Positions 42,982 through 50,070 of a DNA stretch of 64,000 nt are shown here, piece after piece. The DNA lies in assembly GCA_965220745.1 (NCBI GenBank), contig CBDCQT010000012.1, forward strand, positions 576,001 through 640,000. Direction: 5' to 3'. Every line of letters begins with the position of its first letter. The first letter of the stretch is position 1. Under the pieces are notes generated by a model, which was not told the origin of the DNA, ran no database searches, and worked only from the letters and a program-made list of their open reading frames with translations. The position numbers and the translations under genes were made by a program. The stretch comes from Alphaproteobacteria bacterium. GTDB taxonomy: Bacteria > Pseudomonadota > Alphaproteobacteria > UBA828.

Positions 42982-43076
42982 GGCGGCAAGCCTAAAGCCT
43001 ATGCGGCCTTAGAGAAATCGTGCGGGGCGCTATACTGCGCCGCTTCGAGGGAATGCAGGCTGGGGAGGCCGGGACG

Positions 43077-43907
43077 GTGAGCAACAGAGAGGCGCTGCTG
43101 CGCGCACTCCGCGAGCAGGCGCTCGACATCCGGCGCAATACGTGGCGGGCGTTGCGTGCGGCGGGTTCCGGCCACATGGGGGGCTCGCTCTCTGCGGCCG
43201 ACCTGCTGGCTGCGCTCTACTTCCACTACCTCAACCTCCGACCCGACGAGCCCGACTGGCCCGAGCGCGACCGCTTCGTGCTTTCCAAGGGGCACGCCAA
43301 CACGGCGCTCGGCGCGGTGCTGGCCCAGGCTGGCTTCGTGGACGACGGGTTCATCGACACCTTCTACGCCTACGAATCGCGATTCGGCATGCACCCGGAC
43401 ATCAAGGTCCCCGGCATCGAGATGTGCACCGGCGCCCTCGGCCACGGCCTCTCGGTCGGGCTCGGCATGGCGCTCGGGTCCAGGCTGCAGGGCAAGGACT
43501 GGCGCACCGTGGTGATGCTGGGCGACGGCGAGCTGCAGGAAGGCTCCAACTGGGAGGCGGCGATGGCCGCCGCCCATCTGGCGCCGCTCCGACTCACCGC
43601 CATCCTCGACTACAACAAGGTGCAGCAGAGCGGCCACGTCGCCGAGATGCTGGGGCTGGAGCCGCTGGCGGACAAGTGGCGGGCCTTCGGCTGGTCCGTG
43701 CCCGAATGCGACGGGCACGACATGGGAGAGATCGTCGATGCCCTGGACGCGCTGCCCGCCGCACCTGACAAGCCCTCGCTGCTCATCGCCCACACGGTCA
43801 AGGGCAAGGGCGCGAGCTTCGCCGAGGACACCTACCTCTGGCACAACAACGCGGTGGGCGACGAGGTCTACGAGAAGGCCATGGCCGAGCTGGGAGAGCC
43901 CGCATGA
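43077..43907 (+). CDS. Split transketolase, N-terminal (ThDP-binding) subunit
   Basis: GTG after GGGGAGG; SGHMGGSLS, DRFVLSKGH, GDGELQEGSNWEA, HTVKGKG. Confidence 0.9.
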   Translation: MSNREALLRALREQALDIRRNTWRALRAAGSGHMGGSLSAADLLAALYFHYLNLRPDEPDWPERDRFVLSKGHANTALGAVLAQAGFVDDGFIDTFYAYESRFGMHPDIKVPGIEMCTGALGHGLSVGLGMALGSRLQGKDWRTVVMLGDGELQEGSNWEAAMAAAHLAPLRLTAILDYNKVQQSGHVAEMLGLEPLADKWRAFGWSVPECDGHDMGEIVDALDALPAAPDKPSLLIAHTVKGKGASFAEDTYLWHNNAVGDEVYEKAMAELGEPA

Positions 43908-44884
43908 ATGCGCCCAAGCAGGGCAACGGGGCGGAGCCCGCCTGGGTCAAGGCGGCGGCCAACCAATCGCGATTGGCCTTCGGGCTGGCCGTGACCGAGC
44001 TTGGCCGGCGCGACGAGCGGGTGGTCGCGGTCGGCGCCGATACCCTCGACCTCATCGGGCTCAGGGGCTTCATCGAGCACGCGCCCGCGCGGGTCATCGA
44101 CGTCGGCATCGCCGAGCAGAACGCCATGGGCGTGGCCGCGGGGCTCGCCACCACGGGGCTTCGCCCCTTCGTCTGCGGCTACGCGCCCTTCATCACCGCG
44201 CGCTCCATGGAGCAGATCCGCAACGAGGTCGCCTACGCCGATCAGCGCGTGGTGATCGGTGCGGCGGCGAGCGGGGTCTCGCTCGCCGTCTCCGGCGGCA
44301 CCCATCATGCGCTGGAGGACCTGGCGCTAATGCGGAGCCTGCCCAACATGACGGTGCTGGTACCGGCGGACGCCCACGAGGCCTGGCACGCGACGCTGGC
44401 CACCGACGAGATCGACGGCCCCGCCTACATTCGCCTCGGCGGGCGCGTGCCCGAGCCCCCGGTGACGCCCGTCGATGCGCCGTTCAGCCTGGGCCGGGCC
44501 GCGTGTCTAGCCGAGGGCTCGGACGTCGCCGTGATCGCCTGCGGGGCCCTGGTGGCGCCGGCCGTGGACGCGGCAAAGGAACTCGCCGAGCAGGGTATCG
44601 GCGCGCGTGTCCTCAACATGTCTACGATCAAGCCGCTGGACGAGGATGCGGTCCTCGCCGCTGCCGAGGAGACGCGCGGCATCGTCACCGCCGAGGAGCA
44701 TCATCTGACCGGCGGGCTCGGCGGCGCGGTGGCGGAGTTGCTCGCCGTCAGGCGGCCGACGCCCATGCGCATGGTCGGCATGCCCGACGAGTTCGCGGTC
44801 GTCGGCCCTACCGACCGCATCCGCGCGCGCTACGGCATGAGCGCCCGGCACATCGTGGACGCTTGCCTCGACCTGTTGGGCTAG
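43904..44884 (+). CDS. Split transketolase, C-terminal subunit
   Basis: ATGA overlap; GIAEQN, RSMEQIRN, GGTHHALED, STIKPLD, EEHHLTGGLG. Confidence 0.9.
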   Translation: MNAPKQGNGAEPAWVKAAANQSRLAFGLAVTELGRRDERVVAVGADTLDLIGLRGFIEHAPARVIDVGIAEQNAMGVAAGLATTGLRPFVCGYAPFITARSMEQIRNEVAYADQRVVIGAAASGVSLAVSGGTHHALEDLALMRSLPNMTVLVPADAHEAWHATLATDEIDGPAYIRLGGRVPEPPVTPVDAPFSLGRAACLAEGSDVAVIACGALVAPAVDAAKELAEQGIGARVLNMSTIKPLDEDAVLAAAEETRGIVTAEEHHLTGGLGGAVAELLAVRRPTPMRMVGMPDEFAVVGPTDRIRARYGMSARHIVDACLDLLG

Positions 44885-44927
44885 GGGCGCTGCGCCACAA
44901 CCGCTTCCACTTGCGGGGAGAGTGGAA

Positions 44928-45623
44928 ATGAGACGCACGACAGTTCTGGGATGCGCGTTGTTGGTCGTTGCCGGTTGCGGTGGCGGAAGCAACAGCGTCG
45001 AAGAGATGATGACCACGGGGCCGGTTCAGCCTGCCAGCGAAGCCACGCTAAGCACCACTGGCGAATTTCGAGCCGTCCCGATCAATGGCACCGGAGTTGC
45101 CTTCACGGCGGAATTCTACAAATGGGGGGTATGGGGAGGAGTCCTCAGAGACGACTATGTCACGTGCACGGCCATCGGTTGTCCGCCCGCGGGCGAAGCA
45201 ATCTTTTGGGCGTACCTGACCAGCGAGACCGACGGGACGATCACCGCAACAGTGCACGGCGCACAGTCGGGAACGTCGCCGGTGAGCGGGAGCGCCGTGT
45301 GGAGCGGCGATGTCCACGCCTATGAGACGGAAGACGTTACGACCTCCGGGGGGATGTCCGTCACGACTTACGCGCCAGTGGAAGGTGACGCGCGGCTGGA
45401 GGTCGACTTCGCGGCCGCTACCGTCGATATCGATTTCACGAACTTGGACAACAGCCAGGCAGACATGTCCTGGGACGGGCTCGCCGTGGACAACGGCGCG
45501 TTCGGGAGCGGAGCCGCGGGCATAGCGGGCTCGTTCTATGGCGCGGGTCATGAAGGCGCCGCCGGCACCTTCGCCCGCGACGGCCTTGCGGGCGTGTTCG
45601 GCGCTCTCCGCTCTTCCAACTGA
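44928..45623 (+). CDS. Hypothetical lipoprotein with TbpB-like C-terminal beta-barrel
   Basis: Lipobox LVVAGC then GGGS linker; GSAVWSG, GDARLEVDF, GSFYGAGHEGAAGTF..LAGVFGA. Confidence 0.7.
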   Translation: MRRTTVLGCALLVVAGCGGGSNSVEEMMTTGPVQPASEATLSTTGEFRAVPINGTGVAFTAEFYKWGVWGGVLRDDYVTCTAIGCPPAGEAIFWAYLTSETDGTITATVHGAQSGTSPVSGSAVWSGDVHAYETEDVTTSGGMSVTTYAPVEGDARLEVDFAAATVDIDFTNLDNSQADMSWDGLAVDNGAFGSGAAGIAGSFYGAGHEGAAGTFARDGLAGVFGALRSSN

Positions 45624-46061
45624 GCCGGCGCAGGCGGTTCCACCGTCGCCACCTGTACCCTCCTTTTGCCCCGGACCATGGTGCGGTGCTCGGCGGGCAG
45701 CGGCCGCGTCATGATCGCGCCATGCGGAACGAGGGCGAGCGGCGCGCGATGGTAGTGGCAAGGGGGCGCTTCCCGGTCGAGGGGTTGCCGTCTGCGCCGG
45801 CGGCCGCCCGTCCGGCAGTCCCGAACTTGTCCCACGCATCCCGCCTAATCCCGGCGTGTCTCGCCTCAAATTTTTGTTTCGCGTCCCATGTCCTTGGAGC
45901 GGGCCGGCATCGTCGATCCAGGCGCACCCGTCTGGATTACGAGGTCTGCACCCGTCGCGAGCTTGCGTCTCCTCAGCGATGACATGAGAATGGCAGGCGT
46001 GGCCGGGGCGGCGGCTAAGCGCCCCGGTGCCCCGGAAATGTCAGCGTGCGGGAGGTCGGCG

Positions 46062-47552
46062 ATGCTCGAACGCTCCGAATGGTACGATATCGCGCGGGAT
46101 ACCAACTGGACGCCCTCCTACGTCTCGCAGGAGGCGCTGTTTCCGCCCGAGATGGGCGATCCCTACGGCATTCCCACCGAGGAGTGGGAGACCTTCGACG
46201 AGCCTTACAAGGTCTCCTACCGCGAGTACGTGAACATTCAGCGCGAGAAGGATTCGGCCGCCTACTCGGTGAAGGCGGCGCTGGCGCGCTCCAAGTTCCA
46301 CGACGAGGCCGATGAGGGCTGGGCCTGCGTGCTCAAGCTGCACTACGGCGCCGTGGCGCTCACCGAGTACCAGGCCTGCCAGTTCCAGGCGCGGATGTCG
46401 CGCTTCGGCCCGTCGCCCGCGATGCGCAACATGTCGGTCTACGGCATGCTGGACGAGCTGCGGCACACGCAGCTTCAGCTCTTCTTCCCGCACGAGCTGG
46501 TCCACCGCGACCGCCAGTACGACTGGGCCCACGAGGCCCAGCACTCCAAGAACTGGGCGGTTTTAGGCGGCCGCCACGCCATGGACGACATCATGATGAC
46601 GCGGGACGCGATCACGTCTTCGGTGATGGTCTCCTTCGCCTTCGAGACCGCGCTCACCAACCTGCAGATGATCGGGCTTTCGACCGACGCCGCCAATCTG
46701 GGCGACCACACCTTCGCCAACCTGATCACCAGCATCCAGTCGGACGAGGCCCGTCACGCCCAGCTCGGCACGCCCACCATCGAGATCATGATCCGCAACG
46801 GCCGCAAGGAGGAAGCGCAGCAGGCCATGGACATCGCGCTCTGGCGGGTCTGGCGGCTCTTCTCGATCACTGTCGGCATCCCGATGGACTACTACATCCC
46901 GCTCGAGCAGCGGCACATGTCCTTCAAGGAGTTCATGCACGAGTGGGTGATCAACCAGTGGGAGCGGCAGGTGCAGGACCTCGGCCTGGAGCGGCCGTGG
47001 TACTGGGACATCTTCCTCCTCGACATCGACAATCACCACCACTGCCAGCAGGGCGGCATCTGGTCGTGGCGGCCGACGGTCTGGTGGAACCCGCCGGGCG
47101 CGGTGGGGCCCAAGGAGCGTGCGTGGCTGGAGGAGAAGTATCCCGGCTGGAACAAGAGCTACGGCAGCTATTGGGATGTCATCACCAACAACCTGCTGCA
47201 GGGGCACGAGGAAAAGACGCATCCCCAGTGCATCCCGATCATCTGCAACATGTGCCAGATTCCGATCTCGCACCGGCCGGGCCCGGAGTGGGGCGCCCGC
47301 GCCTACCAGCGCGAGTACGGCGAGCGGCGCTACAACTTCTGCACCGAGGTGTGCCGCTGGATCTTCGATACCGACCCGGAGCGCTACAAGGACCACGAGA
47401 CCATCGTGGACCGCATGTATTCGGGCGAGATCGATCCGCCGACGTTGGAGAACGTGCTCACCTACATGGGCATCGGCGTGATCAGCGAGGGCGGCCGCGA
47501 CGGTCACGACTACCGTTGGGTCGAGGGTTTTCGCGCCCAGGCGGCGGAATAG
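46062..47552 (+). CDS. tmoA: Soluble di-iron monooxygenase hydroxylase alpha subunit (toluene/alkene group, TmoA/TouA-like) with YHS-like C-terminus
   Basis: ATG after GGGAGG; WYDIARDTNWTPSYV; iron ligands in TEY, DELRH, FET, DEARH; WLEEKYPGW. Confidence 0.93.
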   Translation: MLERSEWYDIARDTNWTPSYVSQEALFPPEMGDPYGIPTEEWETFDEPYKVSYREYVNIQREKDSAAYSVKAALARSKFHDEADEGWACVLKLHYGAVALTEYQACQFQARMSRFGPSPAMRNMSVYGMLDELRHTQLQLFFPHELVHRDRQYDWAHEAQHSKNWAVLGGRHAMDDIMMTRDAITSSVMVSFAFETALTNLQMIGLSTDAANLGDHTFANLITSIQSDEARHAQLGTPTIEIMIRNGRKEEAQQAMDIALWRVWRLFSITVGIPMDYYIPLEQRHMSFKEFMHEWVINQWERQVQDLGLERPWYWDIFLLDIDNHHHCQQGGIWSWRPTVWWNPPGAVGPKERAWLEEKYPGWNKSYGSYWDVITNNLLQGHEEKTHPQCIPIICNMCQIPISHRPGPEWGARAYQREYGERRYNFCTEVCRWIFDTDPERYKDHETIVDRMYSGEIDPPTLENVLTYMGIGVISEGGRDGHDYRWVEGFRAQAAE

Positions 47553-47585
47553 CCAAGCGGCACCTATCGCGTTGCTGAGGGCGGC

Positions 47586-47858
47586 ATGAGCGCGTTCCCG
47601 ATTCTCTCGCGCTTCCAGCAGGACGCGCACATCAAGACGGTGGAAATCGAGCCGGGCCAGACCATGGACGAGGTGGCGGCGGCCTGCGCCTTCCACTCGA
47701 TCGGGCTGCACGTGGCGGACAAGCCAGGCCGGACGCTGCGCGTGCGGCCCACCACCGAGGACGACTCCGCGCCGCCCTGGCCGCGCGATCTCACGGTCGA
47801 GAAGGCGGGCATCCGCTTCTACGACTGCATCGACATCTATTTCGAAGAGCCCCGGTAG
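47586..47858 (+). CDS. tmoB: Di-iron monooxygenase gamma subunit (TmoB-like)
   Basis: MSAFP..F..D, TMDEVA, HSIG, PRDLTV..AGI, IDIYFEE. Confidence 0.88.
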   Translation: MSAFPILSRFQQDAHIKTVEIEPGQTMDEVAAACAFHSIGLHVADKPGRTLRVRPTTEDDSAPPWPRDLTVEKAGIRFYDCIDIYFEEPR

Positions 47859-47891
47859 CCCACGCGCACCGGGGATTGGAGTGACCGACGC

Positions 47892-48227
47892 ATGGCGTTC
47901 AAGAAGGCCTGCACGCTGGACGACATCTGGGAAGGCGACATGGAGACCTTCGACGTGGATGGCACCGAGGTGCTGCTCGTCCATGTCGAAGGCGAGGGCA
48001 TTCACGCGCTCCAGGCGCAGTGCCCGCATCAGGAGGTGGACTTGGTGGACGGCGATCTCGACGGCCGGGTGCTGACCTGCATGATGCACCTCTGGGAGTT
48101 CGACGTGGTGGCGGGCAAGGGGGTGAACCCAGCCGATGCCGAGATCGCCCAGTATCCGGTCAAGATCGAGGGCGAGGACGTCCTGGTCGATGTCGAGGGC
48201 ATCGAGCCCAAGCATGCCAAGCCCTGA
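47892..48227 (+). CDS. tmoC: Rieske-type ferredoxin (TmoC-like)
   Basis: LDDIWEGDM, CPHQ, TCMMHLWEF, GKGVNP. Confidence 0.92.
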   Translation: MAFKKACTLDDIWEGDMETFDVDGTEVLLVHVEGEGIHALQAQCPHQEVDLVDGDLDGRVLTCMMHLWEFDVVAGKGVNPADAEIAQYPVKIEGEDVLVDVEGIEPKHAKP

Positions 48228-48254
48228 CGGTGCGGCTTAGCGGGAGGAACGGCG

Positions 48255-48560
48255 ATGAGCGGTGACGACACGGCACGCAAGAACGCGGTCGGCCCGGTGC
48301 TGCGCGCGGGCGAGGTCGCCGATGCCGTGGTCGAGGCCCTGGAGGAGGATAATCCCGGCAAGGAGTTCACGGTCGAGGACCGGGTCGCTTACGTCCGGGC
48401 CGAGACCGAGGGCGAGTGCGTGGTGCGGGCAGAGACCGTGGCGCGGGTGCTCGGCCGGCCGTTCAAGATCGCCGAGCTGGAGGTCAATCTCAGCTCATTC
48501 TCGGGCCGGATCGAGACCACTGATGACACCATGCGCTTCTACTTCGAGAAGAGGCTGTAG
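48255..48560 (+). CDS. tmoD: Monooxygenase effector/coupling protein (TmoD / MmoB-DmpM family)
   Basis: VGPVLRAG, DNPGKE..VEDR.AYVR, LGRPF..ELEVNLSSFSGRI, RFYF. Confidence 0.92.
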   Translation: MSGDDTARKNAVGPVLRAGEVADAVVEALEEDNPGKEFTVEDRVAYVRAETEGECVVRAETVARVLGRPFKIAELEVNLSSFSGRIETTDDTMRFYFEKRL

Positions 48561-48788
48561 GCACTATCCAACCGGACAGGATCGTATCCAGTTGCTGCAA
48601 GTTTCCATTTCGCCTGAAGTGCGGCTAGAGACCCCCCCACCTCACCCCGGCCCTCTCCGCCCCCAGGGGCGGAGAGGGAGAGCCGCGTCGGCCCCACCCA
48701 CGTCCCCCCTCCGCCTTTGGGGGAGGGGGACAGGGGGAGGTGGTTGTTCTTCGGACCGCAGTGATCCAGTCAGGCCGGATAATGCTCC
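48558..48788. mobile_element. Degenerate MITE-like inverted-repeat element enclosing a palindromic repeat
   Basis: GCACTATCCAACCGGACAGGATC (48561-48583) vs reverse complement of 48763-48785 GCATTATCCGGCCTGACTGGATC, 18/23 identical. Confidence 0.55.
48632..48743. repeat. Double-hairpin REP-like repeat (CCCTCTCC...GGAGAGGG type)
   Basis: CCCTCTCCGCCCC/GGGGCGGAGAGGG at 48651-48678; second hairpin about 48703-48730; outer CCACCTC/GAGGTGG. Confidence 0.75.
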
Positions 48789-48831
48789 AGAGACTCGCTC
48801 GCGATGGACGCGAAGGGCATTGGGCTGAGGC

Positions 48832-49131
48832 ATGGCGAGTGAGGCGCAGGGCGGCCGCGTTCAGGCCGCGATCCGCCAAAAACTGAGCGAGGCGCTGGCA
48901 CCCAGCCGCCTCGACATCGTGGACGATTCCGCGCGCCACGCCGGCCATGTCGGCGCGCGGCCCGAGGGCGAAAGCCACTTCATCGTGGAAATCGCCTCCG
49001 AACGCTTCGCCGGTCTCTCCCGCGTCGCCCGCCAGCGTCTGGTTCACAAGGTGCTCGAAGACGAGTTGCGCACCGACGTTCACGCCCTCGCACTGAAATC
49101 CCTCACCCCGGAAGAAGACGCCGCGCTGTAG
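48832..49131 (+). CDS. bolA: BolA family protein
   Basis: DDSARHAGH, GESHF, FAGLSRVARQRLV, VHALAL. Confidence 0.93.
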   Translation: MASEAQGGRVQAAIRQKLSEALAPSRLDIVDDSARHAGHVGARPEGESHFIVEIASERFAGLSRVARQRLVHKVLEDELRTDVHALALKSLTPEEDAAL

Positions 49132-49137
49132 GACGGC

Positions 49138-50070
49138 CTACTCCGCCGCCATCAGCGTCTCGACGTGGGTTGCCGCGCTGGCGCCGAGGGCGCGCAGGTC
49201 GTAGCCGCCTTCGAGGGTCGAGACGACGCGGCCGTCGCAAAGCTCGCCTGCCAACCGGGTCAACTCCGTGGTGATCCAGCGGTAGTCGTCTTCGACCAGC
49301 TCGAGGTTCGCCAGCGGATCGTCGCGGTGCGCGTCGAAGCCGGCAGAGATCAGGATCATCTCGGGGCGGAAGGCGCGGAGTGCCGGCAGCATTCGGCTCT
49401 CCATCGCATCGCGGAAGCCGGCGGAGCCCGTGCCCGGCGAGAGCGGCGCGTTGACGATGTTGCCGACGCCGGTTTCGCTTGCCGCGCCCGTGCCCGGATA
49501 GAGCGGCCACTGGTGGGTGGAGCCGAAGAAGAGGTCGCCGTCTTGCTCGAACGCGGCTTGCGTGCCATTGCCGTGGTGGACGTCGAAGTCGATCACGGCG
49601 ATCCGCGTCAGCCCGTGGGTGCGCCGTGCCCGCTCAGCCCCGATCACGACGTTGTTGAAGAGGCAGAAGCCCATCGGCCGGCGAGGCTCCGCATGGTGGC
49701 CCGGCGGACGCACCGCGCAGAAGGCGTTGTCCGCCTCGCCGGCGAACACCGCATCCACCGCAGCCGCGACCGCGCCCGCCGCGCGCCGCGCCGCTTCGCC
49801 CGAAGCGGGCGACATCACCGTGTCGGCGTCAATGGCGACCCGCCCTTCGGAGGGCACGTTGGTAAGAATGGCGTCCACCAGCTTCTCGTCGTGCGCCCAG
49901 GCAAGGATCTCGGCATCGCCCATGGGCGCCTCGCGGCGATCGAGCGGCTCGAAGGCGTCGGCGGCCAGCGCATCCTCAATCGCCCCCAACCGCGCGCCCG
50001 ATTCCGGGTGACGCGCGCCGGGGTCGTGGTCCGCGCACACGGGATGGCTGTATAGGATCGTCTTCGCCAC
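49138..50070 (-). CDS. Histone deacetylase family (acetoin utilization / polyamine deacetylase-like) protein
   Basis: HPES, RPPGHHAE, GFCLFNN, DFDVHHGNGT, SAGFDAH, LEGGY. Confidence 0.93.
   Translation of the reverse strand: MAKTILYSHPVCADHDPGARHPESGARLGAIEDALAADAFEPLDRREAPMGDAEILAWAHDEKLVDAILTNVPSEGRVAIDADTVMSPASGEAARRAAGAVAAAVDAVFAGEADNAFCAVRPPGHHAEPRRPMGFCLFNNVVIGAERARRTHGLTRIAVIDFDVHHGNGTQAAFEQDGDLFFGSTHQWPLYPGTGAASETGVGNIVNAPLSPGTGSAGFRDAMESRMLPALRAFRPEMILISAGFDAHRDDPLANLELVEDDYRWITTELTRLAGELCDGRVVSTLEGGYDLRALGASAATHVETLMAAE

Follow-up and report, generated by a model that had tools for sequence, protein, structure and literature searches.

The 64-kb window analysed here, which corresponds to positions 576001-640000 of contig C12 in the alphaproteobacterial genome G000 (4.82 Mb, 99.96% complete), carries a cluster of four co-directional open reading frames (ORFs) that encode, at 46062-48560, intact TmoA-, TmoB-, TmoC- and TmoD-like proteins of a soluble diiron monooxygenase (SDIMO) of the toluene monooxygenase (TMO) type. 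The four-component enzymes of this type are the "group 2" of the older numbering. All four proteins score far above their Pfam cut-offs, and the ORFs, which span 45888-48560, are separated by spacers of 27-34 bp. The cluster and its right-hand boundary are composed of the following features, in window coordinates.

46062..47552, plus strand: A1, tmoA-like hydroxylase alpha subunit, 496 amino acids (aa); Pfam Phenol_Hydrox, 238.6 bits, 8.6e-71, plus a C-terminal YHS domain
47586..47858, plus strand: B1, tmoB-like gamma subunit, 90 aa; Pfam TmoB (PF06234), 68.1 bits (cut-off 25), 7.7e-19
47892..48227, plus strand: TmoC-like Rieske [2Fe-2S] ferredoxin, 111 aa; Pfam Rieske, 63.5 bits, 1.8e-17
48255..48560, plus strand: D1, tmoD-like effector/coupling protein, 101 aa; MmoB_DmpM (PF02406), 106 bits, 1.2e-30
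48637..48743, no strand: G+C-rich palindromes resembling repetitive extragenic palindromes (REP-like) in the tmoD-bolA spacer; inverted repeats I1, I2, I4 and I6
48832..49131, plus strand: bolA, the conserved right-hand boundary of the beta-less cluster; Pfam BolA, 5.7e-28

The longest ORF of A1 opens at 45888; the ATG at 46062 is the better start because the alignment with TouA, the alpha subunit of toluene/o-xylene monooxygenase (ToMO; 1t0q_A), begins there, with query residue 1 opposite chain residue 3. Among relatives, the open frame upstream of this start differs in length (502-898 aa). The TouA alignment covers residues 1-492 (E 2.7e-201), and TmoA of toluene 4-monooxygenase (T4MO) is matched with E 4e-198. 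Opposite TouA residues 104, 134, 137, 197, 231 and 234, the diiron ligand positions, A1 has E, E, H, E, E and H, respectively. The ferredoxin aligns with T4moC (1vm9_A, E 2.9e-36), including the CPH...CxxH residues, and the G+C content at third codon positions is 0.88-0.93 in the four genes, similar to that of the neighbouring genes. These Pfam scores and the TouA and T4moC alignments bear out the original prediction of an intact four-gene cluster with its ligands kept. Its statement that the window lacks a beta subunit and a reductase also stands, as tblastn with both betas of the genome and the reductase found no such gene or remnant anywhere in the window, the best E being 0.31, and, as it had noted, only the repeats at 48637-48743 and then bolA at 48832-49131 follow tmoD.

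The missing beta subunit and a likely reductase are encoded elsewhere in the genome. Exactly four genes carry the Pfam domain Phenol_Hydrox (A1, A2, E2 and E3), the MmoB and TmoB families are each represented by two genes above cut-off, and the FAD_binding_6 domain occurs in one ORF, C7:75853-76854, whose domain order Fer2-FAD-NAD is that of T4moF. The genes outside the window are listed by contig.

C12:853889-854881: E3, orphan beta subunit, 330 aa; Phenol_Hydrox; 232 kb downstream of the window cluster
C12:383053-384573: A2, second alpha subunit; Phenol_Hydrox
C12:384583-384843: B2, TmoB-like gamma subunit of cluster 2
C12:384875-385165: D2, effector of cluster 2
C12:about 385201-386169: E2, beta subunit of cluster 2; Phenol_Hydrox
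C7:75853-76854: reductase candidate; Fer2, FAD_binding_6 and NAD_binding_1

In total, the genome encodes two each of alpha, beta, gamma and effector, one ferredoxin of the TmoC type and one reductase of the TmoF type, a result of the genome-wide search that does not agree with the idea of several ABCD cassettes sharing one EF pair. Cluster 2 (C12:383053-386169, locus L009:7053-10169) has the order A2-B2-D2-E2, without a ferredoxin or reductase gene, and is located, like E3 and the window, on a single 932-kb contig. The identity between A1 and A2 is 52%, and that between E2 and E3 is 54%. Cluster 2 is flanked by a short-chain dehydrogenase/reductase gene that among NCBIfam families comes nearest to IsoH, the dehydrogenase of the isoprene pathway (263 bits; cut-off 350). 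It also adjoins an NMT1-type ABC transporter and a hydantoinase A/B pair, whose closest matches are subunits of caprolactamase and acetophenone carboxylase.

The orphan beta E3 aligns over its full length with TouE of ToMO (1t0q_B; E 8.1e-129, residues 4-327). On its 5' side lie lipB and a divergent SMR gene; on its 3' side a thiolase-like gene begins after 37 bp and is followed by the genes for an enoyl-CoA hydratase (ECH) and an acyl-CoA dehydrogenase (ACAD), beyond which an FAA-hydrolase-family gene, two alpha/beta hydrolases and an amidohydrolase are found. The thiolase-like gene is located 37-60 bp 3' of E3 in G000 and in 10/10 of the relatives fetched in which the alpha and beta genes are apart (split type), and ACAD is also kept 3' of E3 in all ten; the upstream side differs. 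G012, which possesses the undivided ABCDE operon, has the thiolase-ECH-ACAD block without a beta gene at its head.

A scan of species-representative genomes gave 47 loci, annotated by tblastn with the G000 proteins, from records titled as metagenome-assembled genomes (MAGs), mostly of Alphaproteobacteria or Rhodospirillales. The order A-B-C-D-E is present in L028-L030, with alpha subunits 91-93% identical to A1, and in L031-L033, L035, L037, L038, L040-L045 and L059, with alpha subunits 75-86% identical; the operon-linked betas of all these loci are 62-79% identical to E3. In a tree of 35 betas, E3 falls in a five-row clade with the operon-linked betas of L028-L031 (support of 99 in the Shimodaira-Hasegawa-like approximate likelihood ratio test, SH-aLRT), and E2 is found elsewhere, beside the betas that belong to the A2-type clusters L065 and L067. 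Three basal congeners and every outgroup cluster examined have ABCDE, and their betas join E3 in the tree. By this placement, E3 is the displaced beta partner, orthologous to the operon-linked betas of A1-type clusters, and we infer that A1 and E3 assemble in trans.

To describe the distribution of this arrangement, 40 relatives were searched, 20 of them of the same genus. Orthologues of both A1 (92-100% identity) and E3 (79-100%) are present in 18 genus genomes, G000 included, A1 being 92-99% identical in the 17 congeneric genomes. The two genes are adjacent in three of the 18 (G012, G016 and G017), 27-351 kb apart on the same contig in seven (G000, G003, G004, G005, G009, G014 and G018) and on different contigs in eight, hence apart in 15. 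E3 is kept in 20/20 genus members. Five independently assembled records (L023, L024, L026, L027 and L039), two of them complete chromosomes, share the order transketolase (Tkt)-lipoprotein-A-B-C-D-bolA-histone-deacetylase-family gene (HDAC)-DegP, with alpha subunits 95-99% identical; HDAC and then DegP also follow bolA in the window, and tmoD is followed by bolA in L012, L013, L016 and L022 as well. In a tree of 35 A1-type alpha subunits, all tmoD-bolA clusters group together in one clade, supported by 99 SH-aLRT and embedded within the ABCDE clusters, with a single change of state; therefore, the ABCDE order is ancestral and the split arose once. The beta-less arrangement has a single origin and has been retained since, and with this clade and the 15 split genomes the recurrence of ABCD-only clusters, which had been raised in the original prediction, is confirmed. 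In G012, G016 and G017, DegP-HDAC is found without bolA or Tkt within about 7 kb, and the ABCDE operon of G016 and G017 adjoins a block homologous to G000:C10:376.7-385.0 kb, so that either piece may have moved.

Some neighbours and variants of these clusters deserve description in their own right. The transketolase upstream of tmoA is split in the window, its N- and C-terminal halves being encoded by overlapping genes (43020-43907 and 43904-44884), and a TbpB/Slam-type surface-lipoprotein-like gene (44922-45623) lies directly upstream of tmoA. About 2.8 kb are inserted between tmoB and tmoC in L030 (9778-12658) and L044 (9755-12491), and the insert of L030 encodes an apparent periplasmic solute-binding protein with a signal peptide. 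In G018, a divergent third set with the order E'-B'-A' (L027:4885-7742; 64-69% identity), without ferredoxin or effector, faces the beta-less ABCD genes in head-to-head orientation, and this genome also keeps an orphan E3, 36 kb from there.

The cluster proteins are 88-100% identical across the eight split-type species compared with G000, and the ratios of nonsynonymous to synonymous substitutions (dN/dS, Nei-Gojobori method) between G000 and these eight relatives are low: 0.022-0.101 for A1, 0.040-0.207 for B1, 0.023-0.261 for TmoC, 0-0.145 for D1 and 0.068-0.197 for E3. The neighbouring genes give 0.068-0.176 (bolA), 0.063-0.162 (thiolase-like) and 0.062-0.172 (ACAD). All five monooxygenase genes are under purifying selection, and since their values are in the range of those of their neighbours, simple decay is refuted.

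The spacer between tmoD and bolA, 271 bp long, contains two G+C-rich palindromes, of which I6 is a perfect 13-nt stem. Because 15 copies of this hairpin type are dispersed across the contigs of the genome, the palindromes represent a REP-like dispersed element; the word depth at the element is about ten-fold above that of its flanks. The corresponding spacers of five relatives measure 45-198 bp, and a contig of sequencing run X4 joins 48560 to 48862 with the element absent. Therefore, the element is an insertion polymorphism, neither a part of the enzyme nor a scar of tmoE.

Most genus genomes have one TmoC-type ferredoxin gene, always adjoining A1; a second one (44-46% identity) occurs in G007, G014, G019 and G020, and in the last three it sits in a third cluster, G007 (67% complete) having it without its alpha subunit. 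Beside the A2-type alphas of the genus, none of 15 has a TmoC-like match. Because two other MAGs do carry a ferredoxin in their A2-type clusters (L065 and L067), the genus appears to have lost that of cluster 2, and presumably relies on the TmoC of the window. The single ORF with a Fer2-FAD-NAD order on contig C7 has T4moF as its best solved relative (4wqm, E 1.1e-50), and one orthologue (70-95% identity) is found in each of the 20 genus genomes, never near an SDIMO cluster, even in those of the ABCDE type. Its nearest homologues outside the genus (39-41% identity) adjoin SDIMO genes in G030, G029 and G026, and only in seven more distant loci (L035, L037 and L048-L052) is a reductase gene located after beta. 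The shared part of these systems looks to be the electron-transfer chain and not the beta subunit.

As the best explanation of these results, which we consider likely and hold with good confidence, the window would contain part of a functional TMO-type four-component SDIMO whose genes are distributed over three loci in a conserved split operon. The window would supply the alpha (A1) and gamma (B1) subunits, the Rieske ferredoxin and the effector (D1), and E3 would provide in trans the beta that the (alpha-beta-gamma)2 hydroxylase requires. Electrons would most likely pass from the C7 Fer2-FAD-NAD reductase to TmoC and from there to the diiron site. TmoC and the C7 reductase probably also serve A2-B2-D2-E2, which has no ferredoxin gene of its own, and we infer that TmoC is shared between two hydroxylases. 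The split operon was among the options of the original prediction, and it gains support from the full-length orthologous beta 232 kb away and the T4moF-type reductase on another contig. By its sequence the enzyme is an ordinary TMO-type four-component monooxygenase and no new enzyme class, its gene organisation alone being unusual, so that the earlier description of the cluster as the best candidate for an undescribed system went too far.

Several observations weigh against parts of this explanation. The NCBIfam scores of the C7 reductase are well below the cut-offs (BenC, 183 of 430 bits; MmoC-type, 175 of 500 bits), it is only 33-41% identical to cluster-linked reductases, and in G000, as in 8/8 relatives fetched, its gene comes directly after one for an alpha/beta hydrolase; because it is always found in that place, the reductase could belong to another system. 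The assignment of the C7 protein as the reductase of the window enzyme is accordingly one to which we incline only slightly. The ferredoxin may have a competitor, since the only other TmoC match in the genome, a stand-alone small Rieske ferredoxin (C13, about 621050-621363; 31% identity, CTH...CPLH), could serve cluster 2 instead of TmoC; the "1 TAG" flagged in this gene is its own stop codon. Sharing of a beta between alpha paralogues is possible in the family, and A1 might also use E2, because L041 (5265-10602), L043 (550-5887) and G021 (C65) have the order A-B-A'-B'-C-D-E, with one C, D and E each, and G021 has 3 alpha against 2 beta matches. The regions upstream of tmoA and E3 showed no recognisable regulator and no promoter of the sigma-70 or sigma-54 type. 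More precisely, no sigma-70-like promoter was recognised in 45400-49200, no sigma-54 consensus was found upstream of A1, A2, E3 or the reductase unit, and the sole terminator-like site in 45400-49200 is on the minus strand (49137-49120). Finally, the contigs of run X15 are the only RNA-library data and may be DNA-derived; they are compatible with transcription.

The runs themselves place part of the stretch in 20 data sets from 11 studies, several of them labelled as sponge metagenome, and the pieces of run X1 cover the stretch with 0 differences. Run X15, an RNA library, contains contigs of a close relative over 47157-48032 (the 3' end of tmoA, tmoB and tmoC) and 48255-48613 (tmoD), without cover over 45073-45645; neither this gap nor that of X1 at the repeat counts as evidence. 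As for the hydrolase-reductase unit (G000:C7:75853-77772; L008:7853-9772), its hydrolase finds its best NCBIfam match in a UilS-family lactonase, scoring 178 bits where the cut-off is 400, and in some genomes a gene for a flavoenzyme of the old yellow enzyme type divergently adjoins the unit.

We weighed four other explanations of the beta-less cluster against the split operon, and rejected three of them: decay, misassembly and an enzyme without a beta subunit. The cluster could be a decaying remnant, whose beta and reductase genes were deleted and in which pseudogenisation is under way, as suggested by the lack of both genes within 64 kb and by a mobile REP-like element just 3' of tmoD; however, the four ORFs are intact with their metal ligands retained, their sequences are 88-100% identical with dN/dS values (0-0.26) like those of the flanking housekeeping genes, and the orphan beta is conserved to the same degree, which makes this history scarcely credible. 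The absence of tmoE could also be an artefact of assembly or binning at the repeat after tmoD, where the Logan unitigs of X1, the best DNA run, end inside the repeat and none among the listed pieces bridges 48662-48902. We regard this as next to impossible, given that the tmoD-bolA junction recurs in five other assemblies, that the X4 contig links the two sides, and that E3, cluster 2 and the window share one contig. Another possibility is a reduced enzyme, an alpha-gamma hydroxylase active without beta, with a separate role for E3 in the thiolase operon; the tight linkage of E3 to beta-oxidation-type genes and not to oxygenase genes is in its favour, but every ToMO/T4MO alpha structure entry matched includes a beta chain, E3 aligns with TouE over its full length, and it has been retained after the split in all genus members, so that we consider it very unlikely. 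With the arrangement found split in 15/18 congeneric genomes that have both genes and dN/dS at or below 0.26 in all five genes, the reduced enzyme and the recent deletion with relaxed selection that had been contemplated in the original prediction find no support.

The remaining explanation, which seems improbable to us, is that A1B1 is an interchangeable alpha-gamma cassette without a dedicated beta, sharing E2 or E3, and that such clusters act as modules for substrate specificity built on one shared scaffold. The tandem alpha-gamma pairs before a single C-D-E in L041, L043 and G021, with the unequal counts of the latter, the E'-B'-A' set adjoining ABCD in G018 without C or D, and the single-copy ferredoxin and reductase of G000 would all fit such sharing. 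However, the numbers of alpha and beta matches are equal (2:2 or 3:3) in G000 and in 16 of the 17 genus genomes compared, a comparison that left out G001, G007 and G010 as fragmented or 62-67% complete. Moreover, E3 is orthologous to the beta that directly follows A1-type ABCD in relatives, and E2, only 54% identical to it, remains linked to A2.

The split operon can be compared with the known systems of the family. According to the accessible text of PMC11825192, in which the TMO-type four-component SDIMOs constitute "group 1", TMO operons consist of six genes, which begin with alpha, gamma and ferredoxin and continue with coupling protein, beta and reductase, and six-gene operons are the only ones described there and in the accessible text of PMC13603553. 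A full-text literature search, which covered neither supplements nor subscription papers, turned up no account of a TMO-type cluster whose beta is encoded at another locus. G000 has the components of the type, namely a diiron alpha, a TmoB gamma, a TmoC Rieske ferredoxin, an MmoB/DmpM effector and a genome-encoded beta, but not the single operon: contiguity ends after the first four genes, with the beta 232 kb distant and the candidate reductase gene on a different contig.

With ToMO (touABCDEF; 1t0q), the enzyme shares the component set (alpha, beta, gamma, Rieske ferredoxin, effector and, perhaps, the type of NADH reductase), with A1 alike over 492 residues, E3 over 324 residues and the six aligned ligand positions kept. 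It differs from ToMO in that its beta gene lies in a thiolase/ECH/ACAD block and there is no six-gene operon, and in that A1 has V, T and M in place of the TouA active-site neighbours I100, E103 and F205. The likeness to T4MO (tmoABCDEF) extends to the ferredoxin (T4moC, 1vm9), to the C7 reductase with the same domain order (T4moF, 4wqm) and to the alpha-gamma-ferredoxin-effector succession, which is that of the first four of six genes in the canonical order as given in the accessible part of PMC11825192; the difference is that tmoE and tmoF are unlinked here and that, with two hydroxylase gene sets, the genome has only a single gene each for ferredoxin and reductase.

A practical consequence of this organisation is that surveys requiring a full operon would score such organisms as lacking the enzyme; a MAG survey, PMC13603553, may serve as an example, as far as its accessible text goes. 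A further and tentative idea, which we find rather doubtful, is that this uncultured sponge/marine genus has a distributed network in which one ferredoxin and one reductase feed two to three hydroxylases and one beta is under the control of a beta-oxidation-type operon, so that assembly acts as a two-locus AND gate. If this were true, formation of the active enzyme would require that the locus for the oxygenase and that for the downstream pathway be switched on together. The split operon also offers a natural test of which hydroxylase subunits need co-translation and of whether several hydroxylases can draw on one ferredoxin/reductase pair, and both questions bear on the difficult heterologous expression of SDIMOs, which the accessible text of PMC11825192 names as a knowledge gap.

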